Positions 23,736 to 58,029 of a stretch of DNA of 58,029 bases are shown here, one piece after another. Location: assembly GCA_047621685.1 (NCBI GenBank), contig JBLHNG010000003.1, positions 1-58,029 on the forward strand, given 5' to 3'. Every line of letters begins with the position of its first letter. Position 1 is the first letter of the stretch. The translations under genes were made by a program, and so were the position numbers. The notes beneath the pieces are model-generated. The model saw nothing but the letters and a program-made list of their open reading frames with translations. It searched no databases and had not been told where the DNA came from. Origin of the DNA: Myxococcota bacterium (GTDB lineage Bacteria > Myxococcota_A > UBA796).

Positions 23736-24857
23736 ATGAAGCACCTCCCCCTCCTCCTTCTCTTCGTCGGCTGCGGCGATAAAGACACCGGCTCCTCCAC
23801 CGAAGAAGCCGACGCGGACACCGACGCAGACACCGATGCAGACACGGATGCCGATACCGACGCAGACACCGATGCAGACACCGACGCAGACACCGATGCA
23901 GACACCGACGCAGACACCGACGCCGATCCAATGTGCGACGCCGCCCAGGCCATCGTCGATGCCGCCAACACCCTGACGGCATCGCTCGACGCCAAGCAGC
24001 TCGACACCATCTCCTTCGCCATGGACGACGAGGAGCGGTTCACCTGGTCCAACCTCCCGCCGATCACCACCCCCCGGGAGGGGCTGCCCTACGCCGACAT
24101 GACCGCCGATCAGCGCACGCTCGCCGAGGCCCTGCTCGCCGCCTCCATCAGCGCGGGCGGGCTGGAGGAGGTCGAGGGCATCATCCAGATCGAGGCAGAG
24201 CTGCAAGCGGGCGGCGACATGTCGGCCGATGGTGACCTCTACTACTTCGACATCTTCGACACCCCCTCCATGAAGGAGCCCTGGGGCTGGCAGCTCGACG
24301 GCCACCACCTCGCGATGAGCTTCACCGCCGTCGGCTGCATCTACACCATGACCCCCACCCTCTACGGGGTCTCCCCCAAGGCCACCTCCGACGGCTACGA
24401 GCCCCTGGGTGACGAGGTCATGCTGGCCGAGGCGCTCGCCAGCGCGATGACCGAGGCGCAGCTCAAGGGTGCCGCCCTCACCACCCCACCACAGCTCATC
24501 GCTGGCCCGAACTACCAGGGCGACCTGGAGCCCGAGGGCCTGCCCCTCTCCGAGCTGACCAGCGATCAGCTCTCCCTGCTCGACTCACTGATCGAGGCCT
24601 ACATAACCGACCAGGAGGGCGTGTTCGCCGACTGGAAGATGGAGGAGGTCCGGGCAGAGTACGATGAGACCGTCCTGGGCTGGACCGGACCGTTCGACGG
24701 CACCGGCGCCATCTACTACCGCATCCACGGTCCCGGAATCCTCATCGAGTTCGACCACGTGGACCAGACCCGCGAGCACATCCACGCCGTCTATCGGGAT
24801 CCCCGCAACGACTACGGCGAGGACCTGCTGGCCAGGCACTACCAGGAGTTCCATTGA
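23736..24857 (+). CDS. DUF3500 family lipoprotein
   Basis: Lipobox LLLFVGC, a (DADT)n linker, and DGHHL...YYRIHGPGILIEFDH...HIHAVYRDPRNDYGEDLL as in DUF3500. Confidence 0.85.
   Translation: MKHLPLLLLFVGCGDKDTGSSTEEADADTDADTDADTDADTDADTDADTDADTDADTDADTDADPMCDAAQAIVDAANTLTASLDAKQLDTISFAMDDEERFTWSNLPPITTPREGLPYADMTADQRTLAEALLAASISAGGLEEVEGIIQIEAELQAGGDMSADGDLYYFDIFDTPSMKEPWGWQLDGHHLAMSFTAVGCIYTMTPTLYGVSPKATSDGYEPLGDEVMLAEALASAMTEAQLKGAALTTPPQLIAGPNYQGDLEPEGLPLSELTSDQLSLLDSLIEAYITDQEGVFADWKMEEVRAEYDETVLGWTGPFDGTGAIYYRIHGPGILIEFDHVDQTREHIHAVYRDPRNDYGEDLLARHYQEFH
23808..23927 (+). repeat. 12-nt tandem repeat encoding (D-A-D-T)n
   Basis: gacgc(a/g)gacacc-type units repeated about 10 times inside the DUF3500 gene. 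Confidence 0.9.
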
Positions 24858-25690: not shown

Positions 25691-26113
25691 TCAGGCCGAA
25701 GGCCGCAGCCGTGTGAGCCCAACCAGCACCCCAATCCCCACAACCCCGCCAATGTGCGGGGCGGCGGCGCTCACCGGATGGCCGGCGAGCAAGACGAGCA
25801 CCAGATCCGCCAGGGGCAGCAGCAGAATCAGCGGCAGCAGCCGACGCTGGGCGACGGGATGGGGGCGCAGCGCGAGCAGGGCGAGGCCGAGGATGAGGTC
25901 ACGGGTGCCGGTGGCCCGCACCCAGGTCGGTGCTTCAGAAGGCACCCCGTAAGTCTGAGAGGACCACTCCGGCGCAACCAGCGCCCCCGCCCCCAGACCG
26001 AGCAGGCCGATGGCCAGGGCGAGGGTGCCGAAGGAGATGAGCGTGTTGGTGGTGGAAGAGGTCACCAGAGGATCATATCGGCATTGTCGACGCAGTCGAG
26101 GATCAGGCAACAC
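25691..26113 (-). CDS. small hydrophobic membrane protein (DUF4267-like)
   Basis: Four hydrophobic segments. A shorter start at GTG 26065 is equally possible. Confidence 0.55.
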   Translation of the reverse strand: MLPDPRLRRQCRYDPLVTSSTTNTLISFGTLALAIGLLGLGAGALVAPEWSSQTYGVPSEAPTWVRATGTRDLILGLALLALRPHPVAQRRLLPLILLLPLADLVLVLLAGHPVSAAAPHIGGVVGIGVLVGLTRLRPSA

Positions 26114-26221
26114 CGCACCTGGGCGAGACCTTCCGATCAGGCCGAAAAATCAGCGACTCAATCGAGCGCTGTGTACACTGAATTCAAGTCAACATCCGGT
26201 AATTTCAATCAGGAACAGTCC

Positions 26222-28715
<2,494 letters not shown>

Positions 28716-28738
<23 letters not shown>

Positions 28739-38596: not shown

Positions 38597-40888
38597 TCAA
38601 GGCACCATCAGCCGAAACATCCCCATGTCCTCCGCCAGCACCGCCGCCCGCCAGGAACCAACCGGGTCCGCAGGGTCCGCATACAGACGCTCCATCAGCG
38701 CACGGCTGTCAGCATCATCGACCGGAATCGTCGCGGCAATGACCGCCTCCCCGCCAGCCAGCAGAAACGCCTGAGCCAGCCCGAGACTCTCCACCGCAAC
38801 CGGGGGAGAGGCTGCACCATCGCAGGTCGAGAGGACAACGGTCTGCGGTGCGCGAGACAGGGTCAGCAAATCACCGACGGTCAGCCGACCGCCGCCGTTG
38901 ACCAGGAACGCGCTGTCGGTCACGATGTTCTCGCGCTCACCATGCCCGGCATAGTGCAGCATCGCGGTGTCTTCCAGCAGCAACAGCAGCGACCTGCGGG
39001 TGACATCGCTGCCCGAGAGCGGGCGCACGACCCTGCCCGCCCGGGTCAGCGCGCCAGTAACCAACGCGGCCTCCGCCCGTGCCCCGGGCAGGTTGAGCCG
39101 GGGATCACTGACGACTGCCGCAGTGTTCTCGATCGGGCGCGGGGGTCGTGGCGGCAGATCGAGGCTATAGCGGACAAGATGATGGGCCAGCAGCGGGCGC
39201 CCCTGGAGCGGGAGCATGTGCAGGTCGATGCGCCTCAGCGTGCCATGTGGCAGCAGCGTGATCACCTCGGCGGATGCGATCTGCTCGGCAAACGGCACCA
39301 GCAGCGCCTCGGCGAGGATCTCTGGAGGAGCGTTGAGGTCGACGGAGGGAATCCGGGCAGTGGTCAGTCCCTCCGAGCTGGCCGCGATCCCCACCCAGTC
39401 CGACCCCAGTGAGAACCACGTCAGCAGCAGCTCGCCGGGATCCGGAGAACGAAGCGAGGCCTCGGGGAGGATGTGCGGGGTGCCAGCATCGAGGGCCTGG
39501 CGGGCAAGCTCCTCCTGCCGACGACGCAGGATCGTCAGGACACGGTTCTGCTCACTGGTGGCCGACCAGTCTCCGGGGGTCACCGCCTCCCGGGCGACGC
39601 GGTAGTCGCGTGCCGCCGACAGCCACCGCTCCCGATCTTCCACGGAGAACCGCTCGGTGAGCAGCCCCTGGAGGAGGAGGAGCCGAGCGGTCCGGATCAC
39701 CACGAGAGCGTCTTCAGGCCGATCGTCCGCCAGCAGCAGGGTCACCAGCAGCCGGTCGGCGGGCAGTCCCCGACTCAAGAAACGATCCCGGCCGTTGTGG
39801 AGTGGGACCAGGAGGCTGTGCTCCAGCAGGACCGCGCGGGCCTCCTTGAGCACCGCGATGGCCTCCGCATGCTGCCCCAGCGACGCCAGGATCTCTCCCT
39901 GGGCCACCAGCGCCTGCCAGCGATGACGCGGAGAGGCCGCACCCGTCGATGCGATCACCCCTTCCATCGCCGAGAGCGCCTCGCCGAGCTGGCCGCGGTG
40001 CTGGTGAAGGCGCCCACGCAGATACGCCGCCCACAGCGTCTCGTCGTGGCGTTCTGGTGCGGCGCTGTTGAGGGCCGACTCCAGGGCATCCAGGTCGCCG
40101 AACTCAAGCGCATCGCGGGCTTGAGTGAGGTGTGTGCGAGAGATCGAGGGACAGTCGATCACTCCCGACAGCTCGATCTCCACCCCGCTCAGCTCAGCGG
40201 CCTCCACCAGCACCCAGCCCCGAGACTCCTCTGCCGCACAGCCATCCTCCGACCGGAGGATCCGGCGCGCCTCCCGGTGGCGGCCCACCGCCGCGAGCTG
40301 CTCCGCCAGCCGAAGCGACACCGGAGTGTTTACGCTGTAAATCATCCGGCCTGAAAGCTGGTTCGCATGACGATAGTGCCTCATCGCGGCCCGATGGTCC
40401 CCCCGGTAGCCCGCCAGATCCCCACGACGGAGCTGGAGCTGCCAGGCAGAGGTCAGATCGCCCGGGAGCCGATCGGTGATGCGCTGGAGGTGTGCTTCCG
40501 CAGTCCCCACATCCCCGTCCGCGATCGCGGCATCGACCTCGGAGAGCCCGGCGAGCACCTGCTGCCGTGTGTCGGTCGTCCCGGTCGTCTTCCCCAGCAG
40601 AAGCCGGCCGATCCGACCGTTGTTGTCCTCGATGACCAGTGTCTCTGCGCCAGACGGCACCGCGACATCCAGCAGCACCCCGCCCCCCTCGATCTGCGAC
40701 ATCGCGCCGACCGGCTGGCCGTCCACCATCACCGACAGCGGCGGCAGGGCCTCGACCCACAGGCGCACCGGCGTGCTCCCCGGCAGACACCGCGGCCCGG
40801 TCGTCACCGCCACACAGCCGTCGAACATCAACGGCAGCGTCGGTGGGTCGGGGGTCTGCATGCAGCTGAGCAGGACGAAGAAGATCAT
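38597..40888 (-). CDS. TPR-like repeat + CHAT (caspase-like) protease domain lipoprotein
   Basis: ATG 40888 overlaps the upstream stop (ATGA). Lipobox MIFFVLLSC. The C-terminal dyad context is LHYAGHGE and VVLSTCDGA. Confidence 0.85.
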   Translation of the reverse strand: MIFFVLLSCMQTPDPPTLPLMFDGCVAVTTGPRCLPGSTPVRLWVEALPPLSVMVDGQPVGAMSQIEGGGVLLDVAVPSGAETLVIEDNNGRIGRLLLGKTTGTTDTRQQVLAGLSEVDAAIADGDVGTAEAHLQRITDRLPGDLTSAWQLQLRRGDLAGYRGDHRAAMRHYRHANQLSGRMIYSVNTPVSLRLAEQLAAVGRHREARRILRSEDGCAAEESRGWVLVEAAELSGVEIELSGVIDCPSISRTHLTQARDALEFGDLDALESALNSAAPERHDETLWAAYLRGRLHQHRGQLGEALSAMEGVIASTGAASPRHRWQALVAQGEILASLGQHAEAIAVLKEARAVLLEHSLLVPLHNGRDRFLSRGLPADRLLVTLLLADDRPEDALVVIRTARLLLLQGLLTERFSVEDRERWLSAARDYRVAREAVTPGDWSATSEQNRVLTILRRRQEELARQALDAGTPHILPEASLRSPDPGELLLTWFSLGSDWVGIAASSEGLTTARIPSVDLNAPPEILAEALLVPFAEQIASAEVITLLPHGTLRRIDLHMLPLQGRPLLAHHLVRYSLDLPPRPPRPIENTAAVVSDPRLNLPGARAEAALVTGALTRAGRVVRPLSGSDVTRRSLLLLLEDTAMLHYAGHGERENIVTDSAFLVNGGGRLTVGDLLTLSRAPQTVVLSTCDGAASPPVAVESLGLAQAFLLAGGEAVIAATIPVDDADSRALMERLYADPADPVGSWRAAVLAEDMGMFRLMVP

Positions 40889-41646
40889 CGCTCGGAGATG
40901 ATGACCTCGCGCTTCCAGAAGGTCCACTGCGGCGGGGGCTCCTCTGCTGCTGCGTCCAGGGTGTCTTCGGAGAAGGTCGCGTGCCACCCCCGGATCGGGA
41001 TCGCGCGCTCCAGGGTGCTGACGGGCCCCGCCGGTCCGACTCCGATCAGCAGGGTGTGGGGCCCAGAGGCCAACGCCAGGTCCTCACCGACGATGCCCCC
41101 CAGTCGGTGTGCGCCGTTGCTGGAGGAAACGTCCAGGTCCATCGGCGCCCACCCATCCGGGCCACGGGTGAACACCACGACCTGTGTGGAGCTGTCGGGC
41201 TGGGTGCGGGGTCGGAGGATGAGGCGCATCCGGGAGCCGATCGAGTAGGCCATGACCTCGTCTGGATCGGAGTCGCTCAGGGAGCGCTCGGGCAGATCAC
41301 CGGGGCGGGCGATCAGCCGATAGACCGGCGGCTCTGCGGACGGCGTGCTGGCGACATACCCGAGCCGCACCACCATCACTGCCGCCATCACTGCCACCAG
41401 ACGCGGCAGCCAGGGCCACCACCGACGGCGCGGTTTCTGCGGCACCCGAGGGGGTGGAATCACGGCCAGCTCTGCACGAATCCGACGTGCAAAGCCAGAT
41501 CCGAGGGGAGCCAGGGCGATCGCAGCAGCCGGGTCCGACTCCGCGAGCGCCGCTGCCTCCTCCGCGCTCAGCTCCCCGGCAGCCAGCTGATCCCAGCGGG
41601 CGTCGAGGTGCTCCATGTCGATCTCATCATCCAGGTCTCGTTTCAT
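40885..41646 (-). CDS. single-pass membrane anti-sigma-factor-like protein
   Basis: Lies 3 nt downstream of the sigma gene. It has a short acidic cytoplasmic N-terminus, the TM segment WWPWLPRLVAVMAAVMVV, and a roughly 150-aa extracytoplasmic domain. Confidence 0.6.
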   Translation of the reverse strand: MKRDLDDEIDMEHLDARWDQLAAGELSAEEAAALAESDPAAAIALAPLGSGFARRIRAELAVIPPPRVPQKPRRRWWPWLPRLVAVMAAVMVVRLGYVASTPSAEPPVYRLIARPGDLPERSLSDSDPDEVMAYSIGSRMRLILRPRTQPDSSTQVVVFTRGPDGWAPMDLDVSSSNGAHRLGGIVGEDLALASGPHTLLIGVGPAGPVSTLERAIPIRGWHATFSEDTLDAAAEEPPPQWTFWKREVIISER

Positions 41647-41649
41647 GCC

Positions 41650-42327
41650 TCACCCTGCCTCGGCCCGAAGCCGCATCAGTTCCTGCCTCAATGCCTCGAC
41701 CAGTCGGCGACGCCACTGGTAGATCGCCGCCGCGCTGCGACCGGTCTGCTCCTCGATGGCCGACACCGGGAGCCCCTCCAGAAACAGCAGCCGCATCATC
41801 TCTGTGCCCAGCGGATTCTGGACCGACCCCACTGCCGCAAAGCACCGCATCAGCAGGTCTCGGCGGATCAGGGCGTCCTCCAGTCCCATCTCACTCGCCG
41901 TCTGGGCCAGGATCTCCCCGGACAGCAGCGTCTCGGTCTTCCAGCGCTGCCGCAGCAGGGAGATCGTGCGCCGCCGGGCCACCACGCCGATGAAGCCGAC
42001 CAGCGGAACCCCGTGGCGGCTCGACCAGGTCCGGAGGATCCGGCAGTCGTCCTCGAACAGCGACAGGCTGATCTCCTGCACCAGGTCCTCGACCTCCATC
42101 CGGAGGTTGTGTCGGACCGACGCTGGGCCATGGCGAAGCACCGCTCGGGCGACCCGGGCGTGGATCACCGGCAGCAGGCAGATCACCAGACGCTCCCTTG
42201 CGATGGTGTCGCCGCGAAGCGTCTCGACCAGGAGCTGCTCAGGGGTGTTGGACATCACCGCCTTCGTTGTAGGGGAGGCCTCAGCCGTCGGCCCGGCCCA
42301 GGCAAACAGCGCCCGGAGCGTGCTCAT
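41650..42327 (-). CDS. ECF-type RNA polymerase sigma factor
   Basis: ATG 42327 overlaps the upstream stop (ATGA). Region 2 DLVQEISLSLFED and region 4 LLFLEGLPVSAIEEQTGRSAAAIYQWRRR. Confidence 0.8.
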   Translation of the reverse strand: MSTLRALFAWAGPTAEASPTTKAVMSNTPEQLLVETLRGDTIARERLVICLLPVIHARVARAVLRHGPASVRHNLRMEVEDLVQEISLSLFEDDCRILRTWSSRHGVPLVGFIGVVARRRTISLLRQRWKTETLLSGEILAQTASEMGLEDALIRRDLLMRCFAAVGSVQNPLGTEMMRLLFLEGLPVSAIEEQTGRSAAAIYQWRRRLVEALRQELMRLRAEAG

Positions 42328-42626
42328 GGCTCGAACCGATAGCCCACACCATAGACGGTCTGGAGGTGATGGGGGTGGCGAGGATCCGTCTCCAGCTTGC
42401 GCCGAAGTCGCTGAATGGTGGCGTATACCGTTCGTGATTGCGTCCCCGGCAGGTAGCCCCACACCTCCTCAAGCAGCTCAGCCTGGCTGAACAGCTCCCC
42501 GGGATGCCGCGCAAACCACTGCATCAGCCGGTGCTCGGTCCGGGTCAGCCGGAGGATCTGATCCGCGCGGCGGATCTCACGCCGCCTCAAGTCGATCTCC
42601 GCATCATCCAGGGCAATCACATCCAC
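42324..42626 (-). CDS. stand-alone OmpR/PhoB-type winged-helix DNA-binding domain protein
   Basis: LTRTEHRLMQWFARHPGELFSQAELLEEVWG...TVYATIQRLRRKL...LQTVYGVGYRF. No receiver domain. GTG start with AGGAGG 6 nt upstream. Confidence 0.8.
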   Translation of the reverse strand: MDVIALDDAEIDLRRREIRRADQILRLTRTEHRLMQWFARHPGELFSQAELLEEVWGYLPGTQSRTVYATIQRLRRKLETDPRHPHHLQTVYGVGYRFEP

Positions 42627-45500: not shown

Positions 45501-45502
45501 AG

Positions 45503-45613: not shown

Positions 45614-45707
45614 TCACGCTCTCCTTCGAGCCGGTTTGTGGGTGGCTCGGAGGGGATAGGCGCGTCGACCATAAAGCGTGACAGCGAGTCTGCGAATCAG
45701 ACCAGCA

Positions 45708-46583
45708 CTACTTCGGCGGCACGCTGTTCGCTTCCATCCACTCCAGCAGCGCCTCGGAGAGCCCTTCAGACCAACCGTGCCCCTGGAGGTCCATGACCCA
45801 GTCCGTGAACGTGACGGTGTGACCTTCCTCTTCGAGGATCTCAGCCGTCTCGACAGACAGGCTGTAGTCGACGACCTGATCGTCTGGATCGTGGGCGAGG
45901 TAGATGGGCAGCTTCCGGACGGGTGCCGGATCGGGGTAGTCGAAGCGACTGCCCAGTCCGCCGCTGGAGACGATGCCCATGGCGGTAAACCGGTCCGGTG
46001 CGGTGACCCCCAGCCACATCCCGACGAAGCCCCCTGCGGAGTTGCCCACCCACCAGGTCCGCCCCTCGTCGAGGTCCAGGCTCTCCCACAGGGTGTCGAT
46101 GAGCGGCTCGATCCAGTCGGCGTCGTCGTAGGACCAGCTGTGAAGCTCCTGGCCGCCCTCGATCACCCCGGGTGCCACGAAGACGTAGCCCTCAGCGATG
46201 GCGAGGTGGTGGAGGCTGGTGCCGGTCGGGTCGGACCAGTCCTCAAAGAAGTTACCGGGACTCTGCCCGCCATGCCCCCACAGCAGCAGCGGTGCACAGG
46301 CAGGCAGCCCCTCCGGCACCCGAACCCAGACCGGCACGCCGTCCTGCTCAATGAAGTGGTCGCCCGCAGCCAGCCCGCTCCCGCCGGTGCAGGAAGAGGC
46401 GGTGTCGGTGGTGTCGGTGGTGTCGGTGGTGTCGGTGGTGTCAGTATCAGCGGTGTCTGTGTCGGCGGTGTCGGCGATGTCAGTATCCGCAGTGTCCGTA
46501 GCGGTGTCGTTGTCGACCTCGCCGGTGCCAGTGCAGCCGAGGATGAGTGCGGTCAGGGTGAGCATTGGGCCTCCTGACCGCAC
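45708..46583 (-). CDS. esterase lipoprotein (alpha/beta hydrolase, PHB-depolymerase/feruloyl-esterase-like)
   Basis: Lipobox LTALILGC, a (T/A-D)n linker, and nucleophile elbow GNSAGG. The start may be the ATG at 46565. Confidence 0.8.
   Translation of the reverse strand: MRSGGPMLTLTALILGCTGTGEVDNDTATDTADTDIADTADTDTADTDTTDTTDTTDTTDTASSCTGGSGLAAGDHFIEQDGVPVWVRVPEGLPACAPLLLWGHGGQSPGNFFEDWSDPTGTSLHHLAIAEGYVFVAPGVIEGGQELHSWSYDDADWIEPLIDTLWESLDLDEGRTWWVGNSAGGFVGMWLGVTAPDRFTAMGIVSSGGLGSRFDYPDPAPVRKLPIYLAHDPDDQVVDYSLSVETAEILEEEGHTVTFTDWVMDLQGHGWSEGLSEALLEWMEANSVPPK
46401..46515. repeat. 6/12-nt tandem repeat encoding (D-T/A)n
   Basis: (ggtgtc)n on the plus strand, inside the esterase gene. Confidence 0.85.
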
Positions 46584-46591
46584 GATAACCG

Positions 46592-47380
46592 CTACCAGGG
46601 CTGGGCCAGTCGCTGACCGCCCTGGACCTTGGTGGACTCCAGCAGCGTGTCACCTGGGAAAGTGCCAGCGTATGTGGGCACGTCGTCCTTGTCGTTGAAG
46701 GTCATCACGACCTTGTCCTGCATGTAGGTCGTCCCCGAGTCGGACTTCAGGAGCATCTCCAGCTCGAACTTACCAGCACCGACATCGCTCTTGGTGAACG
46801 CTGCGCTGTGGCCCTGGGCGGTGGTGATGTCGAGGTCGATGGTGGCAGAGGACACGTCTTGAGTGGGGCTGATCCGCCGGGTGGTGACCGTCATGTCCTG
46901 GCTGGCGCCGTCGTCGCTGCTGGCCTTGTAGCTCGCCTTGAAGGTGTCGCTGTTGGAGGCATCCCAGCCAAAGGTGAGCAGCCAGTCGGGCACCGGCATG
47001 GGATGGGTGATGCGATCGAAGATGAAGGTGGAGTCTGCGGCTGGGACATCGAAAAACGCCGAGCGCCGCATCCGGACCACGCTGTCCCATGGGGCCACGT
47101 TGGTGCCGCCGGTCATCTGCCACCGGACCTCGACGGTGTCGCCAGTCGTGACAGTGACGGCGCTGGAGGCGGTCATCGCGCGGGTGGCGTTGCTGAAGGA
47201 GAGAGTCGCCTGCTGGCTGCCGTTGACCAGGATCTTACCGACCAGTCCGCTGGGATTCCAGCCAGCAAGACCAGGGTTTATCAGCGCAGACGGGCTGACC
47301 AGGGTCAGGGTTCCAGCTTTGATATCAACCTTGACGCGCATAATAATCGACCCGAGGGGCCACTCATTCTCACTAGACAT
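46592..47380 (-). CDS. hypothetical cytoplasmic beta-rich protein (262 aa, no Cys)
   Basis: Starts 19 nt downstream of the CHAT gene on the same strand. Ser/Thr/Val/Asp-rich with no signal peptide and no recognisable motif. Confidence 0.65.
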   Translation of the reverse strand: MSSENEWPLGSIIMRVKVDIKAGTLTLVSPSALINPGLAGWNPSGLVGKILVNGSQQATLSFSNATRAMTASSAVTVTTGDTVEVRWQMTGGTNVAPWDSVVRMRRSAFFDVPAADSTFIFDRITHPMPVPDWLLTFGWDASNSDTFKASYKASSDDGASQDMTVTTRRISPTQDVSSATIDLDITTAQGHSAAFTKSDVGAGKFELEMLLKSDSGTTYMQDKVVMTFNDKDDVPTYAGTFPGDTLLESTKVQGGQRLAQPW

Positions 47381-47399
47381 TCTGTGCCTCGATTACAGT

Positions 47400-49823
47400 T
47401 CAGTAGACGATTGGAGCAGCCCAGATCCGGGCTGGCAGCCCCTCACGGCGGAGCTGTTGGCAGACCAGAGCGGTGACCCGGGCTGGATCGTTAAACGGCC
47501 AGTGAGTCATCATGCACTGCACAAAGCGCCCCATCTCGCGGTCCTGGACCGGCCATCGGGTGGCGATCACTGCGGATGCACCCGCGCTGAGGAAAGCGCC
47601 GGCCATCGACCGCTCGACACCTCGGTGCAGCGCTGAGGCACCGGTCGCGCAGCCCGACAGCAGCACGATGGGGTTGCCGGAGAGCGGAAGGTTAGAGATC
47701 TCAGGTGGCCCGATGAGGCCGTCGGCCATCACCAGCAAGGGCATGCCACGCTCTCGGCGGGAGTGAACGCCGATGTGCAGCAGGCCGACCGGGGGAAGCT
47801 CCAGGAGCGCCCGGTGGGTCACCTCGCTTCGGCGGAGGAACACATCTGCCGAGGCAACCTCCGCATCTGCCATCGGGAGGTCTCCGTGGGCGTCCGCCAG
47901 ACTGGCGACCGCAGCCGGCAGCACCATGGGCTGTGCGCCTCGGCGACGACGGGGACCCGCGAGATCAATGAACTGCGGGGGACGGGCATCGCCGACCTGT
48001 GCAGCGATGTACGGCATCGGAGCGTTTGCCAGCAGGCTATTGCTGCCCAACAGGATCTGTCCTGTCGGGATCCCATCGGGGAACAGGATCTCAGCCAGCC
48101 GGATGGCAACCCTGGGGGTTCCGCCTGTGAGGGCTTCCTGCTGGCTGGTGTGGACCAGGCGCAGGAACTCATCCCGACTCATGCGGATGTTTCGGACCGA
48201 TGCTCCGGGCTGACCGCTGAGCACCAGCAGTCCCTGGGGCACCGCGAGGATCCCCATCAGCGAGATCCGATCGTCTGCGGCATCTGCGGTGTGCAGGAAG
48301 TACAGGCGCATCAGGTGACGGGCAGCAGCAGCATGAGCCTCGATGGCCAGATTCAGCAGCGCAATCAGGGTGTGCAGCGTGCTGGCATGGACCCGACCGT
48401 CATCGTGTTGGTGCAGCTCGTCCTCAACGGCGGTGATGACCTGCGCCCAGTCGGTCACGCGACCAGAGCGCTGCGTGACCAGGATCCGGAGCAGGATCCA
48501 GCTCAGCCCTCGACTGCTGAGGGTCTTCAGCTGCTCGACCTCTTCGTTGAGCGCCTGCAGCCGGACCTGAGCCTCAGAGAGCTGTCCGCTGCCGACAAAG
48601 GCCTCGATGAGGTAGCCGCGGGCCTCCATCGCGCTGTACGGAGACAGCTTGTCGATCCAGGGAGCATTCAGGGACCGGAGGGCGACATCGTAGAGACCGA
48701 GCGCGACGTTGAGGCGCAGGCCGATCTGTCCCAGGCGCGCGACCTCTTCAGGGGCGGCAATCTGTGCCATCGCCAGCCACCGGGCCGCGGCCTCCAGCTC
48801 CCAATTGTTCAGTGCTGCCTGGGCCTGCTCCCGGCAGACCCAGGCGGCGTTTCGGTTGTCCAGGGCCACCCGACGGACGAGCGCCTGAAGCACCGACTCC
48901 GCAGCGGGCTGAAACTGGAGACAGTTCAAGGCAATCGCCAAACCCAGCGCCGCCTGAATCTCACCGGCAGTGTCCTTGACTTCTATCCCCCGCTCCAGCG
49001 CCTCCCGATAGAGACGAGACGCTTCAAAAAAGCTGCCCCGCTGGCCCAATTTTCCCGCTCTATAGATCAGCGCGATGGTCTCTTCATCCGCCGGCTTGAG
49101 CCGCTCCGCCGTATACAACACCCGGACATCGGAGGGCTCAAAGCCGGTGTCGAGGTTTAGCTCTGCGGCGTGCAGGCAGTGCTCGGCGCCCTGGAGGAGG
49201 TCTGTGAGGCTCGTGGAGTCGTGGGAGCGGTAGACGTCAGAGAGCCACAACCCCCAGAGGATGGGATCGACGGCCTGGGAGGAGGACAGCGCGACGATGC
49301 GGCGCGTGCCCTCAGGCAGGTGGGCCAGCTCCAGAGACACACCAGGGCGCTCCCGGCTGAGCTGGTGGACCAGGATCGGCGGCCCACCCTGCATCACCGC
49401 GTAGAGCAGCAGATGACAGGCCAGGGGATCGTGAGCCAGGGCCCCGCGCTCGGTCCGGTGAAGCTCCAGCGCGCCCTGAGAGCGATAGTTTCGGTAGAGG
49501 CTCTGAGAGGTCATCTCCGGAAACGGTGCCAACCCCTGGGTCTGTGCCAGCAGGAGGGCGGGAGCCGGAGGAGCGGTGCGAGCTGCCGTCCGGGCCTGGA
49601 GCGCCTTGAGGGAAGGCGGCTTCGGCATGGAAGCAACCACGGTCGACTCGCGGACCATCGCACCGAGCTGCCCAAGCTGCTTCTCTAGTTGGAGCTGGCC
49701 CTGACACTCACTGCAGCCCTGAGCGTGCTGACGTGCCGGTGCGGGCCAGACTCGGAATCCGGTCCACTCCAGGGTTCCCTGGAGAATTTGCTCTTCAATC
49801 AACTTGTGGGTCAACTCAGTCAT
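47400..49823 (-). CDS. zinc anti-sigma (ZAS, HxxxCxxC) N-terminal domain fused to TPR-like repeats and a CHAT protease domain
   Basis: ATG 49823 overlaps the sigma stop (ATGA). H33-AQG-C37-SE-C40. C-terminal LHIGVHS and IVLLSGCATG dyad context. No signal peptide or TM segment. Confidence 0.85.
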   Translation of the reverse strand: MTELTHKLIEEQILQGTLEWTGFRVWPAPARQHAQGCSECQGQLQLEKQLGQLGAMVRESTVVASMPKPPSLKALQARTAARTAPPAPALLLAQTQGLAPFPEMTSQSLYRNYRSQGALELHRTERGALAHDPLACHLLLYAVMQGGPPILVHQLSRERPGVSLELAHLPEGTRRIVALSSSQAVDPILWGLWLSDVYRSHDSTSLTDLLQGAEHCLHAAELNLDTGFEPSDVRVLYTAERLKPADEETIALIYRAGKLGQRGSFFEASRLYREALERGIEVKDTAGEIQAALGLAIALNCLQFQPAAESVLQALVRRVALDNRNAAWVCREQAQAALNNWELEAAARWLAMAQIAAPEEVARLGQIGLRLNVALGLYDVALRSLNAPWIDKLSPYSAMEARGYLIEAFVGSGQLSEAQVRLQALNEEVEQLKTLSSRGLSWILLRILVTQRSGRVTDWAQVITAVEDELHQHDDGRVHASTLHTLIALLNLAIEAHAAAARHLMRLYFLHTADAADDRISLMGILAVPQGLLVLSGQPGASVRNIRMSRDEFLRLVHTSQQEALTGGTPRVAIRLAEILFPDGIPTGQILLGSNSLLANAPMPYIAAQVGDARPPQFIDLAGPRRRRGAQPMVLPAAVASLADAHGDLPMADAEVASADVFLRRSEVTHRALLELPPVGLLHIGVHSRRERGMPLLVMADGLIGPPEISNLPLSGNPIVLLSGCATGASALHRGVERSMAGAFLSAGASAVIATRWPVQDREMGRFVQCMMTHWPFNDPARVTALVCQQLRREGLPARIWAAPIVY

Positions 49824-50398
49824 GGCTGTTGTTCCTCAAGCGCAGCTCGGAGCAGCACTCGGATTCGATGAAGTCGGCTTCGCACAGCCAATGGACTCAG
49901 CGGGGGCTCCAGCTGGGCTGCAATCTCCGCAGGCTTCAGCTGCTGCTCGACACTCATCCAAAAAATCATGGGATCAGGCGGCTCCAGGAAGCGAACCACG
50001 TCGAGGATGCTGCGAGCGGTCTCGTCGCGCTGGACGGGGTCGGGCATCTCATAGGAGGTGGTAAACCGGGCGAGATAGCGCGCCTGACGTTCCGCATGGC
50101 GCTGTGTGTTCCGACGGACCCGCATCGCCTCGTAGCGGGCGAAGGTCGCAAGCCAGCCGCCCAGACTGCGCCCATCAAACCGCTGCCAGTTCTCCAGCAT
50201 CAGGGCGAAGACATTCTGGAGCTGCTCCTCGGATTCCTCCTGAGAGAACCCCTTTCGCAGAAAGATCGCCATCAGCTCTGGCCCATGAACCTCCCAGGCA
50301 AGCGGAACCACCGGCCCCACATCTCCGCTCGCAACAGCTTCATCGAGCAGACGTCTCAGCTCATCCGGTGACCGATACATGGGAGAACTCTGACTCAT
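49820..50398 (-). CDS. ECF-type RNA polymerase sigma factor (divergent)
   Basis: ATG 50398 overlaps the receiver-gene stop (ATGA). Region-2-like LQNVFALMLENWQRFDGRSLGGWLATFARY and region-4-like KPAEIAAQLEPPLSPLAVRSRLHRIRVLL. Confidence 0.7.
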   Translation of the reverse strand: MSQSSPMYRSPDELRRLLDEAVASGDVGPVVPLAWEVHGPELMAIFLRKGFSQEESEEQLQNVFALMLENWQRFDGRSLGGWLATFARYEAMRVRRNTQRHAERQARYLARFTTSYEMPDPVQRDETARSILDVVRFLEPPDPMIFWMSVEQQLKPAEIAAQLEPPLSPLAVRSRLHRIRVLLRAALEEQQP

Positions 50399-50826
50399 TC
50401 GGAGTGTGCAGACTCCGCGCTGATCAGATTTCGCAGGTGGGAGAACGAGAATGGCTTGCACAGGATCGGTCGGCCGAGGGTCTTGAGGTGTGCCTCGGTG
50501 TCCCAGGAGCATCCGCCGGTCATGAACACCGTCCGAGACTGCTGCTCTGGGGACAGGCGGGCGTAGAACGTCGGGCCATCCATCACCGGCATGACGACAT
50601 CAGAGACGATCATGTGTGGAGTGCCATGCACTGCGATGTCGGCGAGGGCATCGACAGCGGATGCGAACAGGCTGACAGAGTAGTCCTCAAGCAGCTCCCC
50701 GAGCAGCATCCGAATCACCGGGTCATCATCGACAACCAGGACTCGAAGGGACGCCTGGGGCATCTGACAGTGATGACTTGATGATGGCTGTGGAGACACC
50801 TGCTCCCTCCGGTTTAAGGCGTTCAT
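50395..50826 (-). CDS. stand-alone response-regulator receiver domain protein
   Basis: RVLVVDDDPVIRMLL...MIVSDVVMPVMDG...VFMTGG...CKPF. ATG 50826 overlaps the upstream stop (ATGA). The ATG at 50763 is an alternative start. Confidence 0.8.
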   Translation of the reverse strand: MNALNRREQVSPQPSSSHHCQMPQASLRVLVVDDDPVIRMLLGELLEDYSVSLFASAVDALADIAVHGTPHMIVSDVVMPVMDGPTFYARLSPEQQSRTVFMTGGCSWDTEAHLKTLGRPILCKPFSFSHLRNLISAESAHSE

Positions 50827-51536
50827 AGTAAGCCCAGGGCGCTGTTGATTTGGTTCTCGAGGCCATCGAAGGCCTGACGAATCTGGCGGAGCTTGTCAGA
50901 CAGGGTCTGAAGCTGGGCCGCTGACAGGAAGCTGAGTCGATCCAGATCACCAAACAGCAGCCCCTCTCTGGTCACTGCCTGCTCCAGCCGATTGATCTCG
51001 GTGACGAAGGCCGGTGGCTGTGGAGGAGACGGGCGAAGGGCACGCACCTCAGCCTCCAGCTGCCGAACGGTCCAGCATCCATTCTCTGCGCGCTTCAGCA
51101 ACCTCAGCTGGTCGTCATCTGAGATCGAGAGCACTGCGCGAAAGTGCGACACCCCGAGGTTGGACCAGTCTTCCCCGATGCGCTGGAGCAGGGCGTAGAT
51201 CTGCATCGAGCGGTGGAGGACCGAGCGGCTGATGGCCACCCCATTGATCCGGGTCAGCTTCGCCAGCTTTCGGATCGAGGCCTCCTTGGCTCCCCGAGCA
51301 CGCCAGGCCTCAAGATCACCGTCGTAGAGATCCTCGATGAGGATCCGGCCGACGTTGAGATGGAGCTGAAGCCCGGAGAACCGGACCATTCGGCCAAGTC
51401 GCATCGCGGTGCGCTTGCACTCGACATCGGAGAAATCAGAGGAGAGCCCGGGGGCGGCTTCCTGAACAGGTTCTATGTTTGGTGGACTCACATATAGACA
51501 GAGCCAAAGTCGCCCTATCGTTGCACGCCTTGACAC
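50823..51536 (-). CDS. putative DNA-binding protein (ParB-HTH-like)
   Basis: GVSHFRAVLSISDDDQLRLLKRAENGCWTVRQLEAEVRAL resembles the ParB/KorB HTH region. The first 44 codons have low GC3, so the true start is probably ATG 51404. Confidence 0.55.
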   Translation of the reverse strand: MSRRATIGRLWLCLYVSPPNIEPVQEAAPGLSSDFSDVECKRTAMRLGRMVRFSGLQLHLNVGRILIEDLYDGDLEAWRARGAKEASIRKLAKLTRINGVAISRSVLHRSMQIYALLQRIGEDWSNLGVSHFRAVLSISDDDQLRLLKRAENGCWTVRQLEAEVRALRPSPPQPPAFVTEINRLEQAVTREGLLFGDLDRLSFLSAAQLQTLSDKLRQIRQAFDGLENQINSALGLL

Positions 51537-51575
51537 TCTCCTGACATTCTAATCCCAAGCCTGAGGGAAACGCCG

Positions 51576-53129
51576 CTATTGATCGATGCTGGCATTCAGC
51601 TCAAAGCCGGTGATGGTCTGAAGCTCAGCGGTCTGTGCGTCGTAGAAGCTCAGCCGCCCCAGCTCGTGCGCCTGGCTGGCGTAGGCGGTGTGAGAGCCTG
51701 GGAAGACCCCGATGTGCGCCGGGTTGCTGAGCAGGTTGATCTCATCGAGCAGCATCGCGTCGAGGTCCACCGACTCCAGGTAGGGCAGGTCTTCGAGGTA
51801 GAAGAAGGCGTACTGCCCATCTTCTGAGAAGGTGATCCCGGCGGGAACGGCGGACAGCCGGAGGGCGTTGGTGAAGTAGTCGTCGAGGTCGACGATGGTG
51901 ATCGCTGGCGCACCCTGAAACGGGGAGTCCTCGTCGATGTCCTTGTGGTCTTCCTTTGGATGGACGATCAGCGCTGAGCGCACCCCGGGGGCCATGTGAA
52001 CGCTCTCGATGGACTTGACGGTGCCGTGGGTGGTGAACGCATCGGTCTGGTCGGGGGCCAGGAGATCCCAGCTGACAAACCGCGGCTCCCCGGCGGCGGT
52101 GCTGTAGAGGATGGCGGTGTCTCCGGTGTCGGAGATGCTGATGCTGCCGAGCACGGTGTCGACGGGCAGGGGCATGACCTCCGGCAGCGCCTCCGGCACG
52201 GCGAGGTCGTAGATCCACACCTCTGAGGATCCCCGGGCCACTGCCATCGCCCGGGTGCCATCGGGGGTGACATCGAGGTCGGTGGGGTTGTCTCCGGCGG
52301 CCAGGACATCGGTCTCTCCGCTGACGAGATCGACGAGGATGAGGTCGGAGACTCCGTACTGCCGCACGATGGCGTACTGCCCGTCGGGGGTGACCAGGAC
52401 CTCCTCGGCCTCCGGTGGCTCCACGGTGTCCTCGATCTGGATGCGGGTCAGCACCGGCTCGTCTCCGCGCAGGTCGAGGTGGACCAGCCAGGAGTCGGAG
52501 ACCAGCACGGCGTCCCCGGTCTGCGAGAACTGGATCTGTGCCGGCTCGAAGCCCACCGACTGCGGCCAGTCCACCCCGCTGGTGATGTCCACCACGCTGA
52601 CCTCGCTGTAGGACCATGCACCGCTGGTGTCGTGGTCGGCGGGGGCCTCGGCCTGGTAGTAGCACAGCGCCCAGCGGCCATCGGGGGAGAGCTGGAGCTG
52701 GTTGAGGTGGGGGCGAATGGGCACCGCCTGGAGCTCCAGGCTGGTGGCGTCGACGATGTGGACCTCATCGAGTCCGGTGTCGAGGATGACCACCGCACCA
52801 TACGGATCCGAGGCGACCATGACCGAGGGGTTGGGGCCGATCTCGGCGGTCAGGGCGGAGAGGTCGGCGATGGAGACCCGGGTCAGCGAGTTGCGGTCGG
52901 GGTTGGCGATGTAGATGTTGTCGTCTACTGCGACCGGCTCCAGGGCGATGTAGGGGGACTCCTCCTCAGGATCGTAGCCGTCGTCGTAGGTGTCGGTGTC
53001 GGTGTCGGCGTCGGTGTCGGCGTCGGTGTCCGCATCGGTGTCGCTGTCGCTGTCGGCCTCATCGCTGGACACGGAGGCGGCGTCCTTGCCTTTACACGAC
53101 AGGAGCATCAAGAGGGTGATTGCACGCAT
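51576..53129 (-). CDS. beta-propeller lipoprotein (YncE/lactonase-like repeats)
   Basis: Lipobox LLMLLSC, a (D-S/T/A)n linker, and repeated ...SPDG..A.V... blades. Confidence 0.75.
   Translation of the reverse strand: MRAITLLMLLSCKGKDAASVSSDEADSDSDTDADTDADTDADTDTDTYDDGYDPEEESPYIALEPVAVDDNIYIANPDRNSLTRVSIADLSALTAEIGPNPSVMVASDPYGAVVILDTGLDEVHIVDATSLELQAVPIRPHLNQLQLSPDGRWALCYYQAEAPADHDTSGAWSYSEVSVVDITSGVDWPQSVGFEPAQIQFSQTGDAVLVSDSWLVHLDLRGDEPVLTRIQIEDTVEPPEAEEVLVTPDGQYAIVRQYGVSDLILVDLVSGETDVLAAGDNPTDLDVTPDGTRAMAVARGSSEVWIYDLAVPEALPEVMPLPVDTVLGSISISDTGDTAILYSTAAGEPRFVSWDLLAPDQTDAFTTHGTVKSIESVHMAPGVRSALIVHPKEDHKDIDEDSPFQGAPAITIVDLDDYFTNALRLSAVPAGITFSEDGQYAFFYLEDLPYLESVDLDAMLLDEINLLSNPAHIGVFPGSHTAYASQAHELGRLSFYDAQTAELQTITGFELNASIDQ
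52989..53058. repeat. 6/12-nt tandem repeat encoding (D-T/A/S)n
   Basis: (ggtgtc/ggcgtc)n on the plus strand, inside the propeller lipoprotein gene. Confidence 0.85.
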
Positions 53130-55763: not shown

Positions 55764-58029
55764 ATGTTTCTGCTGTCTGCCCTCGCGACCTTATCTACTG
55801 CCTCCGCAGCTGGTGACGGCGTCCTGTACTACACCGGCCACAGCGGCTTCTCTGTGTCTTCGTACTTCCCGCCGTCGGACTTCGAGGATGTGATCGTCAA
55901 TGAGGAGTGCGGCACGTTCACGGAGACGGGCAGCTGGCCCGCAGACCTGAGCGTGTACCGGATGGTGGTGCTGATGATCCCGTCGAGCAGCTGGTCGACG
56001 GCTGAGACGCAGCAGATCCAGGACTTCATCGACGACGACGGTGTGCTGGTCGCTGTGGGTGACTCAAGTGGGTATGACTCCGCCCATGTCAGCCCGATGA
56101 ACACGCTGCTTGGCAACCTCGGGGTCACCTCCACCCTGCAGAACACGAGAATTGATAGCGGCTGCTCTGGCAACACGGCTGCTGCTGCAACCACCCATGC
56201 GCTGACCGAGGGCATCTCCAGCACCGGCATTCAGTACGGCTGGTCCAGCGACATCACCATCGGCAGCGGTGGCACCGAGCTGTTCACGGGCAACTCGGGT
56301 CAGGCGCTCGGGGCGGTCGAGGGGCAGGTGGTCCTGATCTCGGACATCAACGTGTTCATCGACGACTGCAACCTCAACAGCGACAGCCGCCAGTTCTTCG
56401 CCAACCTCTACCACTACGGCACAAGCGCCAACAGCTGCGACATGGACGTAGATGGCTACGACGCGGAGCACTGCGGTGGAGCCGACTGCAACGACTGCGA
56501 CAGCGGTACCGACGTCGGCGATGACTGGTACGCAGACGACGACGGCGACAGCTACGGAGACGCATCCTCCACCACGGCGGCCTGCAGCCTGCCCTCCGGC
56601 TACGTCGCCGATGCGACAGACTGCGACGACACCGACTCGGCCATCAACCCGGCCGCCACTGAGACCTGCGACGGCGAAGACAACGACTGCGACGGCGACA
56701 TCGACGAGTCCGGCAGCACCTACACCTACTACGCCGACGACGACGGCGACGGCTACGGCGACCCCGGGGTCGCCGTCTCTGGCTGCAGCGAGCCCTCCGG
56801 CTACGTCTCCAACAACGCCGACTGCGATGACACCGACGGCAGCGTCTACCCCAATGCCCTGGAGCTCTGCAACGGGCTCGACAATGACTGCGACGGCACG
56901 GCCGACAATGACTACGCTGCAGATGCGCTGACCTGGTACGCAGACAGCGACGGCGACTCCTATGGAGACGTGTCCTCAACCACCGACGCCTGCGACGAGC
57001 CCTCTGGCTACGTCGCTGACGATGACGACTGCGACGACACGGACGCCGCCATCCACCCGTCCGCCACCGAGGTCTGCGACGGTGATGACAATGACTGCGA
57101 TGGCCTCACCGATGAGGGCGACGCCGCAGACACTGCCACCTGGTACGCCGACGACGACGGCGACAACTACGGAGACGCCAGCTCAACCTTCTACGCCTGC
57201 GACGAGCCGAGCGGCTACGTCGCTGACGACACCGACTGCGACGACACCGACTCCGCCATCAACCCGGCCGCCACCGAGGTCTGCGACGGAGACGACAACG
57301 ACTGCGACGGAACTGCCGACAACGACGATGCTGCGGACTCGCTGACCTGGTTCGCCGACGACGATGGCGACACCTACGGAGACGCCAGCTCAACCACCGA
57401 CGCCTGCGACGAGCCGAGCGGCTTCGTCTCCGACGACACGGACTGCGACGACACCGACTCCGCCATCCACCCGGCCGCCACCGAGGTCTGCGATGGTGAC
57501 GACAACGACTGCGATGGCACCATCGACAACGACGACGCCGTGGATGCCCTGACCTGGTACGAAGACAACGACGGCGACGTCTACGGAAACCTCAGCTCGA
57601 CCACTGACGCCTGCGACCAGCCCACAGGGTACGTCTCCGATGACAACGACTGCGATGACACCGACGCTGCAGTCAACCCGGCCGCCACCGAGGTCTGCGA
57701 CGGAGACGACAACGACTGCGACGGAACCATCGACAACGACGACGCTGCGGACTCCCTGACCTGGTTCGCAGACACCGACGGCGACACCTACGGGGACTCA
57801 TCCTCGACCACTGAGGCCTGTGCAGAGCCGACTGGCTACGTCTCCGACGACACCGACTGCGACGACACCGACAGCGCGATCAACCCGGCAGCCACCGAGG
57901 TCTGCGACGGTGATGACAACGACTGCGATGGCACCACCGACAACGACGACGCTGCGGACTCCCTGACCTGGTTCGCAGACACCGACGGCGACATCTACGG
58001 GGATGCGACCTCAACCACCGACGCCTGCG
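55764..58029 (+). CDS. secreted protein: roughly 230-aa N-terminal domain plus at least seven MopE-type putative metal-binding repeats, 3' end beyond the window
   Basis: Not in the ORF track because there is no stop in the window. My translation from ATG 55764 gives MFLLSALATLSTASAAGDGVLYYTGHSG...CDDTDSAINPAATEVCDGDDNDCDGT... It is open to nt 58029. Confidence 0.85.
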   Translation, partial: MFLLSALATLSTASAAGDGVLYYTGHSGFSVSSYFPPSDFEDVIVNEECGTFTETGSWPADLSVYRMVVLMIPSSSWSTAETQQIQDFIDDDGVLVAVGDSSGYDSAHVSPMNTLLGNLGVTSTLQNTRIDSGCSGNTAAAATTHALTEGISSTGIQYGWSSDITIGSGGTELFTGNSGQALGAVEGQVVLISDINVFIDDCNLNSDSRQFFANLYHYGTSANSCDMDVDGYDAEHCGGADCNDCDSGTDVGDDWYADDDGDSYGDASSTTAACSLPSGYVADATDCDDTDSAINPAATETCDGEDNDCDGDIDESGSTYTYYADDDGDGYGDPGVAVSGCSEPSGYVSNNADCDDTDGSVYPNALELCNGLDNDCDGTADNDYAADALTWYADSDGDSYGDVSSTTDACDEPSGYVADDDDCDDTDAAIHPSATEVCDGDDNDCDGLTDEGDAADTATWYADDDGDNYGDASSTFYACDEPSGYVADDTDCDDTDSAINPAATEVCDGDDNDCDGTADNDDAADSLTWFADDDGDTYGDASSTTDACDEPSGFVSDDTDCDDTDSAIHPAATEVCDGDDNDCDGTIDNDDAVDALTWYEDNDGDVYGNLSSTTDACDQPTGYVSDDNDCDDTDAAVNPAATEVCDGDDNDCDGTIDNDDAADSLTWFADTDGDTYGDSSSTTEACAEPTGYVSDDTDCDDTDSAINPAATEVCDGDDNDCDGTTDNDDAADSLTWFADTDGDIYGDATSTTDAC
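56520..58029 (+). repeat. tandem array with a period of about 207 bp (69 aa), continuing past the window edge
   Basis: The acctgg(t/a)(a/t)c landmark recurs at 56931, 57138, 57345, 57552, 57759 and 57966, each exactly 207 nt apart. The later units are near-identical. Confidence 0.9.

Follow-up and report, generated by a model that had tools for sequence, protein, structure and literature searches.

Genes at the locus

On the minus strand of a 58,029-nucleotide stretch from a Myxococcota bacterium (contig JBLHNG010000003.1 of assembly GCA_047621685.1, positions 1 to 58,029, the whole of which is called the window here) lies a gene for an 807-amino-acid protein that joins a probable zinc-binding anti-sigma (ZAS) domain to a region of tetratricopeptide repeat (TPR)-like helices and a C-terminal CHAT caspase-like domain. 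The gene overlaps the end of a gene for a divergent extracytoplasmic function (ECF) sigma factor and is followed by a gene for a 262-amino-acid protein, p262. The order sigma, ZAS-TPR-CHAT and p262 is a conserved triad in variable chromosomal neighbourhoods.

49820..50398, minus strand: divergent ECF sigma gene, 192 aa from the ATG at 50398, with the open reading frame (ORF) open back to 50512 (Pfam, family profile)
49820..49823, minus strand: ATGA stop/start overlap from the sigma gene to the ZAS-TPR-CHAT gene (junction sequence)
47400..49823, minus strand: ZAS/beta-domain/TPR/CHAT gene (P0001), 807 codons open, 807-aa product
46592..47380, minus strand: p262 gene (P0152), 262-aa all-beta protein, 19 nt downstream of the fusion gene (homologues, AlphaFold2 model)

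The junction between the sigma gene and the fusion gene reads GAGGAACAACAGCCATGACTG, and the TGA of the former shares the ATGA at 49820-49823 with the ATG of the latter. A Shine-Dalgarno-like GAGGAA is found upstream, with the end of the box 8 nt before the ATG. A preliminary description of the stretch, made without database searches, had given both the 807-aa reading frame and the overlap of its ATG with the stop of an ECF sigma gene, and the ORF and the junction sequence agree with it. The description of the two genes as a pair of the sigma/anti-sigma type also holds, with an overlap of 4 or 8 nt retained in 14/14 related loci in which both gene ends are readable (L001-L003, L005-L011, L013, L040, L042 and L044). 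In the window, genes for a helix-turn-helix (HTH) protein, a receiver protein, the sigma factor and the fusion protein are linked by three consecutive ATGA overlaps, and the p262 gene comes next after its gap of 19 nt. A scan of positions 45500-51800 for sigma-70 promoters and terminators gave nothing exceeding the shuffled expectation.

Distribution of the family

A word-seeded (k-mer) search for homologues returned one relative with 74% identity, in a Logan assembly where all seven genes recur in unchanged order (L001). The family came to light only in an exhaustive HMMER scan of 1.84 billion cluster representatives. It gave 47 clusters at E<=1e-30, mostly of 760-800 aa and matched from end to end, followed by a tier at E ~1e-10 and weaker in which only the CHAT domain was matched. 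Several of the larger members of this weaker tier have hydrophobic, signal-peptide-like N-termini, and none has the zinc motif. The preliminary description had proposed a survey of how often the fusion occurs; H-x3-C-x2-C lies inside the first 41 residues in 31 family clusters (representatives at 50% identity).

Among GTDB genomes the full-length family is present in metagenome-assembled genomes (MAGs) labelled Myxococcota, Pseudomonadota, "proteobacterium" and "Enterobacterales", and one MAG has three copies. The loci L002, L004, L009 and L011 are in MAGs titled 'uncultured Enterobacterales bacterium' that have 67-72% G+C and a myxobacteria-like gene content. These labels look wrong, being implausible at such a G+C content.

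Some relatives are arranged differently. In a single MAG (L009:3228-8154) two family members stand in tandem behind a sigma gene; the zinc motif is present in the first and absent from the second (an 862-aa ORF), and no p262 homologue comes after. The longer relatives P0027, P0035 and P0040 (843-880 aa) have no zinc domain and show weak, sub-threshold N-terminal matches to sigma region 4/Sigma70_ECF (E 0.0016-0.03); they may be sigma4-TPR-CHAT fusions or gene-calling run-throughs.

The N-terminal domain

49644..49823, minus strand: zinc anti-sigma-like domain, aa 1-60 (motif, family conservation, model)
49806-49808 (H6), 49725-49727 (H33), 49713-49715 (C37) and 49704-49706 (C40), minus strand: putative zinc ligands, invariant in 26 homologues

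The motif HAQGCSEC (H33-x3-C37-x2-C40), from which the preliminary description had started, is present at the extreme N-terminus. When the window protein is compared with 26 full-length homologues (27-37% identical to it), the only invariant residues of the N-terminal domain are H6, W26, P27, H33, C37 and C40. An AlphaFold2 model of the window protein was built on these homologues (mean pLDDT 83.8, pTM 0.75). It places helices at residues 3-10, 20-25 and 28-36 and a long helix at 38-58 (pLDDT 56-78 over aa 1-60), with H6 in the first of these, H33 closing the third and C37 and C40 opening the long one. The modelled position of the ligands at a helix-helix junction is the layout of zinc anti-sigma domains.

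When the N-termini of the 26 homologues were scanned one by one, the RsrA model TIGR03988 was matched by 14/26 (best E 9e-5) and Pfam zf-HC2 by 9/26 (best E 0.0085), and these anti-sigma ZAS models were the only families to recur. On the window protein the RsrA model gave E 0.0083 for the N-terminal fragment and, over its full length, E 0.15, which falls well short of the cut-off. An N-terminal family profile compared with 177,635 PDB sequences ranked DdvA-Nt, from the anti-sigma factor DdvA of Myxococcus xanthus, first (E 0.19), RsiW third (0.59) and RslA fourth (1.2), and in the RslA alignment a His stands opposite H6. The N-terminus alone compared with PDB by phmmer gave chance matches to snaclec only.

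Because the putative ligands are invariant, the anti-sigma models recur, DdvA-Nt, RsiW and RslA rank at the top in PDB, and the gene overlaps that of an ECF sigma factor, the N-terminus is very probably a ZAS domain, even without a significant profile score. It would then bind both zinc and the sigma factor. The profile search for zf-HC2 suggested in the preliminary description turned out two ways: the window sequence itself fails the Pfam model, and this is outweighed by the evidence from the family, in which the RsrA and zf-HC2 models match 14 and 9 of the homologues.

Two relatives, P0042 (741 aa; L042/L043) and P0045, have no N-terminal Cys/His zinc motif and keep both the sigma overlap and the p262 gene. 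Since the gene triad is kept in these zinc-ligand-free relatives, the anti-sigma-like N-terminus can exist zinc-free, as in other class I anti-sigma domains.

The CHAT domain and the soluble state

47403..48266, minus strand: CHAT caspase-like domain, aa 520-807 (PF12770, model, fold matches)
47763-47765 (H687) and 47649-47651 (C725), minus strand: predicted catalytic dyad (alignment to CHAT and separase)

The C-terminal part matches Pfam CHAT (PF12770) at residues 656-777 with E 1.5e-11 and 44.7 bits (cut-off 24). The segments LHIGVHS (H683/H687) and VLLSGCATG (C725) had been proposed as the contexts of the His/Cys dyad, and this assignment is upheld by the alignment of H687 and C725 with the His and Cys of a canonical CHAT domain. 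In a profile-profile alignment with the second, canonical CHAT protein of the window, LLHIGVH687 is placed on MLHYAGH (the 'HYAGH' motif) and VLLSGC725 on VVLSTC ('LSTC'), and in HMMER alignments the C725 motif falls on G-C-S of Chaetomium separase. The residues H683, H687, D701, C725 and D761 are invariant across the 26 homologues, and the invariance of H687, D701, C725 and D761 at such low identity argues that catalysis is under selection. The TPR-CHAT module is thus apparently catalytically competent, as judged from its sequence.

Residues 520-807 are modelled as an alpha/beta caspase-like domain preceded by helical repeats. The loop after C725 (aa 727-735) has a pLDDT <50, as expected if it were a mobile active-site loop. 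Foldseek searches with the model (probability 1.00) returned DdvA first (8rw5, E 8.7e-12; 8rot, 2.7e-11), then Csx29 (~1e-9) and then separase. The DdvA matches cover 604-622 columns with a TM-score of ~0.4 and ~15% identity.

The protein was described from the start as lacking a signal peptide and a transmembrane (TM) segment and hence as cytoplasmic, and the hydropathy of the whole family agrees. No TM segment is found in the 807-aa protein, where the top Kyte-Doolittle mean over 19 residues is 1.51, at aa 520 in the CHAT sheet, and there is no hydrophobic stretch at aa 60-130 on the same scale. A TM-like segment within aa 40-200 is seen in 0/31 motif-bearing clusters (maximum Kyte-Doolittle value 1.62 or less). 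As the whole motif-bearing family lacks a TM helix, the protease would act in the cytoplasm and no RseP step would be needed.

The linker, the beta-rich domain and the TPR-like helices

49470..49643, minus strand: conserved linker, aa 61-118 (two short modelled helices; column counts)
49149..49466, minus strand: beta-rich domain, ~aa 120-225 (DSSP of the model)
48279..49085, minus strand: TPR-like helical repeats, ~aa 247-515 (paired model helices)

The region between the zinc domain and the CHAT domain had been described as about 500 aa of TPR-like repeats. This has to be revised, as the model instead shows a linker, a beta-rich domain (120-225) and about 270 aa of TPR-like helices. The beta-rich domain has strands at 120-181, helices at 187-209 and a strand at 217-223 (DSSP; block pLDDT 67-93). 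For the helices that follow, the family profile matches the TPR structures of LGN/GPSM2 (E 6e-6), and hhalign aligns the family to the canonical TPR-CHAT paralogue in the window with 96.9% probability over 496 columns. The Pfam TPR model on the window sequence alone is not significant (E 0.81).

The linker is conserved, and judging by its columns it is not a mere spacer: among the 26 homologues it keeps P67-P68, R78 (22/26), F101 (21/26) and R111 (25/26). Residues 106-115, which contain R111, have the lowest confidence of the model (pLDDT <50), and this stretch is probably flexible. The linker (aa 61-118) is therefore treated below as a candidate site of cleavage or autocleavage.

The sigma factor

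The upstream gene had been named as that of an ECF sigma factor. This identification stands, based on a Pfam Sigma70_r2 match of 24.5 bits (cut-off 24) and on the match of a family profile to CnrH. The match to Sigma70_r4_2 is 18.9 bits (below the cut-off of 25.7), the NCBIfam sigma70-ECF model gives E 2.3e-8, below its cut-off, and all NCBIfam ECF-type matches are sub-threshold. Compared with PDB, the sigma family profile (A7) finds CnrH at 8.4e-11 across positions 9-183 and SigE at 3e-8; the single sigma sequence gave no match in PDB with phmmer, so the family profile was required. The protein consists of regions 2 and 4 only and its size is within the range of ~170-200 aa for ECF (group 4) sigma factors. 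The precomputed annotation of several relatives lists no Pfam domain at all on the sigma factor. A sigma factor so divergent that Pfam annotation misses it in several relatives suggests that standard ECF surveys probably overlook such pairs.

The third gene

A p262 homologue is located directly 3' of the CHAT gene in 14/16 related loci. The p262 family comprises 33 clusters, all unnamed or annotated as 'hypothetical protein', and p262 has no match in Pfam, NCBIfam or PADLOC. A structure model made with database homologues is all-beta, compact and two-lobed (AlphaFold2; pLDDT 90.4, pTM 0.88), with dips in confidence at aa 31-50 and 91-100. Foldseek found no significant neighbour of this model in PDB, where the best match has E 0.014 (cytokine-receptor tandems of fibronectin type III (FnIII) domains), or in BFVD (best 5.6e-3). 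The possibility that p262 is a bacterial gasdermin or another known effector was rejected because there is no match in PADLOC, Pfam or NCBIfam and the fold matches are only to generic immunoglobulin/FnIII tandems. The protein may be a substrate, a sensor or an output.

Gene neighbourhood and other features of the window

50823..51536, minus strand: ParB-like HTH gene, 237 aa, at the head of the coupled genes (ATGA overlap of its stop with the following ATG)
50395..50826, minus strand: stand-alone response-regulator receiver gene, 143 aa (Pfam Response_reg, 55.7 bits)

The two genes upstream of the sigma gene in the coupled run are less constant companions of the triad. The HTH protein matches Pfam HTH_ParB at E 4.9e-4, below the cut-off, and weakly matches four models of PDC-S02, a PADLOC candidate defence system (E 2.4e-5 to 1.2e-4). 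A homologue is found near the triad in 7/13 loci scanned and is usually divergent. The stop of the receiver gene overlaps the ATG of the sigma gene (ATGA; the junction reads GAATGAGT). A receiver gene is upstream of the sigma gene in four loci, among them L001 and L040/L041, and downstream of the triad in L008. The third-position G+C content is 0.68-0.73 in the HTH, receiver and sigma genes (49820..51536), 0.77 in the CHAT gene and 0.83-0.89 in the flanking genes. No such dip is seen in the 74%-identical locus L001 (0.79-0.90). The dip may reflect recent acquisition or relaxed codon adaptation.

Beyond the triad, the genes vary from locus to locus and are housekeeping-like, including peptide ABC transporters, polyketide synthase genes and MopE-like proteins. 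In the window the neighbours are lipoproteins, an esterase, a DUF4184 protein, Ser/Thr kinases and M16 peptidases. A defence-island context like that of DdvA is not supported, as there are no domains of cas genes or of the cyclic-oligonucleotide-based anti-phage signalling system (CBASS) in the neighbours and no CRISPR array in the window. PADLOC on the window gave weak matches only, BovA on the CHAT motif and PDC-S02 on the HTH protein.

A second module of sigma and CHAT genes, in this case unfused, is located 5 kb away at 38597..42462 on the minus strand.

41650..42462, minus strand: sigma-like gene of the second module (weak Sigma70_r2)
40885..41646, minus strand: 253-aa protein of the second module with one TM helix (no Pfam match)

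The module ends with a TPR-CHAT protein (CHAT E 2e-23, and TPR_12), the likely start of which is M34 at 40888, in an ATGA shared with the preceding stop, and gives a lipoprotein-like opening, MIFFVLLSC. This module looks like a 'split DdvA', in which a TM anti-sigma-like protein is combined with an exported TPR-CHAT protein.

Short in-frame tandem repeats at 46400..46496, 52980..53057 and 23809..23923 encode Asp/Thr-rich linkers (DTAD...). In the esterase (45708..46583) and in a 517-aa protein (51576..53129), linkers of this type come directly behind the lipoprotein signal peptide. A 207-nt repeat is present 7.3 times at the end of the window (56525..58029). A 994-aa protein (25754..28738) has six MopE-type metal-binding motifs and FG-GAP repeats, and proteins with MopE motifs also flank the triad in L044. 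Two Ser/Thr protein kinases (801..4178 and 8553..10109, both on the plus strand), one of them fused to an AAA_16 ATPase domain, adjoin a pair of M16 peptidases (5769..8650). This kinase and M16 peptidase content is typical of Myxococcota.

A proposed mechanism and its alternatives

We consider it rather likely that the 807-aa protein follows the DdvA design as an anti-sigma factor that is soluble and cytoplasmic, and that it frees its ECF sigma factor by CHAT-dependent proteolysis. The N-terminal helical domain with its HHCC zinc site would bind and hold the sigma factor encoded by the overlapping upstream gene, while the body of beta-rich domain, TPR and CHAT would serve as sensor and switch for an intracellular signal. 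A cytoplasmic cue, possibly acting through the TPR groove, p262 or the coupled receiver protein, would bring the H687/C725 dyad into register. The protease would then cut, either in cis or in trans and most probably in its own linker (aa 61-118, with the near-invariant R78 and R111). The small zinc domain would be detached and turned over, and the sigma factor would be released to transcribe its regulon. The domain content, the invariant putative zinc ligands and catalytic residues, the lack of a TM segment in the family, the likeness in fold to DdvA, Csx29 and separase and the gene triad are observed. The binding of zinc and of the sigma factor, the proteolysis, its substrate and its signal are inferred.

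Separase and several other clan CD enzymes cleave after Arg. Self-cleavage in the linker is favoured here because the linker is conserved, because R111 is in its least ordered stretch and because the isolated zinc domain of DdvA is unstable in vivo (PMC11506125), so that severing the tether would be enough to liberate the sigma factor. A more far-reaching version, in which the triad is a self-contained intracellular surveillance module, possibly directed against phages like DdvA-DdvS and craspase, and the protease, once the TPR/p262 sensor is engaged, cuts itself after linker R111 or R78, is put forward tentatively and with considerable doubt. If true, it would be the first case of a soluble anti-sigma factor that cleaves itself, and the autoproteolysis hypothesised for DdvA could be proved in a system free of membranes.

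Several observations weigh against release of the sigma factor by proteolysis of a DdvA-like protein. The 100- and 60-aa N-terminal fragments of the window protein have no Pfam zf-HC2 match even at E<=10, and every ZAS profile match is under its trusted cut-off. The relatives without zinc ligands (P0042/L042) imply that zinc is not essential for the function of the family. The family HMMER profiles find no likeness to the TPR-CHAT body of DdvA, so the two could have reached the same design by convergence. Even in DdvA autoproteolysis is still a hypothesis (PMC11506125), and p262 is an obvious alternative substrate.

The last point leads to a craspase-like arrangement, in which the CHAT domain would cut p262 (or the sigma factor) and not itself, the product would be an effector or a signal, and binding of the sigma factor by the zinc domain would regulate or localise the protease or be relieved only secondarily. 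The only other invariant member of the module is p262, after the fusion gene in the 14/16 loci mentioned above, and there are precedents for separate substrates: Csx29, in a known CHAT/ECF system, cleaves Csx30, which controls RpoE (PMC10028731), and the Lon protease CalpL cleaves the separate anti-sigma factor CalpT. We nevertheless regard this arrangement as unlikely, since the model of p262 is compact (pLDDT 90) with no obvious disordered cleavage loop apart from the dips at aa 31-50 and 91-100, p262 is unlike Csx30/Csx31, gasdermins or any PADLOC effector, and the conservation of the linker in the fusion protein is left unexplained. Proteolysis would not be needed for release at all if the domain were a thiol/zinc switch like RsrA or ChrR, where oxidation or an electrophile acting on C37/C40 would release zinc and the sigma factor, with TPR-CHAT as a scaffold or an independent output. 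The best N-terminal family-model match is indeed the redox-sensing RsrA (14/26 members), and the spacing H6...H33-x3-C37-x2-C40 appears to resemble the ligand spacing of ChrR. The authors of the DdvA study also weigh attack of reactive oxygen species on the zinc domain as a second route (PMC11506125). A switch of this kind is nonetheless quite improbable here, because the invariance of H687, C725, D701 and D761 argues that catalysis is selected and the zinc-free relatives that keep the sigma/CHAT/p262 arrangement weigh against a purely redox mechanism. Most ZAS domains are not known to be redox sensors.

The N-terminal motif might also not belong to an anti-sigma domain but be an unrelated zinc or structural element, with the adjacency of the sigma gene due to co-regulation and the sigma factor controlled by, for example, the receiver or degradation, as proposed for ECF54. 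The window sequence has no significant Pfam profile match in this region, and ECF54 is reported with CHAT proteins nearby and no recognised anti-sigma factor (PMC8999054). The conserved motif is nevertheless at the extreme N-terminus of a protein whose gene overlaps the sigma gene, no models other than those of anti-sigma factors are matched repeatedly and the PDB matches are led by DdvA-Nt, RsiW and RslA, which makes this explanation very improbable.

Comparison with known systems

The fusion of a zinc anti-sigma domain to a TPR-CHAT protease had been taken for an uncharacterised architecture. This is not the case: DdvA of Myxococcus xanthus, the top Foldseek match, is an anti-sigma factor of 991 aa in which a ZAS domain, a TM helix and TPR-CHAT are combined, and its structures have been solved by cryo-EM and NMR (PDB 8ROT, 8RW5, 8RLZ; NAR 2018, PMC6061681; Sci Adv 2024, PMC11506125). 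It has a cytoplasmic CHCC zinc domain of ~70 residues, a TM helix (W71-L92) and a periplasmic region of ~900 residues, which consists of an alpha-helical scaffold (93-367), TPR (368-701) and CHAT (702-991) with the dyad H862/C907 (PMC11506125). In the model of its authors, which is a hypothesis, a signal induces CHAT autoproteolysis in trans, followed by cleavage by RseP and release of the sigma factor DdvS (PMC11506125).

Both proteins have an N-terminal H-x3-C-x2-C zinc domain of ~60-70 aa, a linker, TPR, a C-terminal CHAT domain with a His/Cys dyad and an adjoining ECF sigma gene, and for both a protease-triggered release of the sigma factor is proposed. They differ in that DdvA has a TM helix and a periplasmic TPR-CHAT region whereas the window family has no TM helix, and in that DdvA has Cys as its first zinc ligand (CHCC) and the window protein His (HHCC). 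The helical scaffold (93-367) of DdvA is replaced by the beta-rich domain (aa 120-225) in the window protein, or the latter has been added. The conserved 262-aa partner is present in the window family, and DdvS controls a CBASS/CRISPR island whereas no such genes are seen around the window triad, but defence-gene neighbours are true of only a subset of DdvA-like pairs. Sequence homology was not detected, since the profiles A1 and A2 retrieve no DdvA chains from PDB at E<=1-10 and only the N-terminal motif region does so (E 0.19). The relation of the window protein to DdvA is at the level of design and fold only.

Craspase (type III-E; Cas7-11, Csx29, Csx30/Csx31 and RpoE) also links a cytoplasmic TPR-CHAT protease of similar fold to an ECF-type sigma factor, and its protease is allosterically activated, as would be that of the window family. 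Csx29 differs from the window protein in lacking an anti-sigma domain, in being switched on by Cas7-11 with bound RNA and in cleaving another protein, Csx30, and the window has no cas genes or CRISPR array. The CalpL-CalpT-CalpS system of type III CRISPR resembles the proposed mechanism in that a signal-activated cytoplasmic protease removes an anti-sigma factor and frees an ECF-like sigma factor, but the protease is Lon and not CHAT, it is separate from the anti-sigma factor, and the trigger is a cyclic oligoadenylate sensed by SAVED. RsrA, ChrR and RshA are cytoplasmic, have an N-terminal H/C...H-x3-C-x2-C site and are co-transcribed with an ECF sigma factor, but they are of ~100-200 aa with a thiol-switch or cupin-sensor output and none has a protease. 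Separase (Peptidase C50, clan CD) has helical repeats and a caspase-like domain with a matching fold, and its catalytic Cys motif aligns, but it is a far larger, eukaryotic protein controlled by securin and phosphorylation, without a link to sigma factors.

A soluble ZAS-TPR-CHAT protein was not described in the literature searched, which is absence of evidence within that literature only, and CHAT goes unmentioned in the main text of the 2021 ECF reclassification. The design of a zinc anti-sigma domain fused to TPR-CHAT is already known, and the soluble cytoplasmic family, the conserved p262 partner, which has no recognisable fold relatives, and the very divergent sigma factor appear to be new. 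A soluble protein of ~800 aa should be easy to co-express with its sigma factor, so the hypothesis of CHAT autoproteolysis could be tested directly in vitro. Such a test is complicated in DdvA by the membrane and RseP, whereas the window family is membrane-free. The theme of a protease combined with an anti-sigma factor and an ECF sigma factor, seen in DdvA, craspase and CalpLTS, would gain from this family a third architecture, which is both fused and cytoplasmic.

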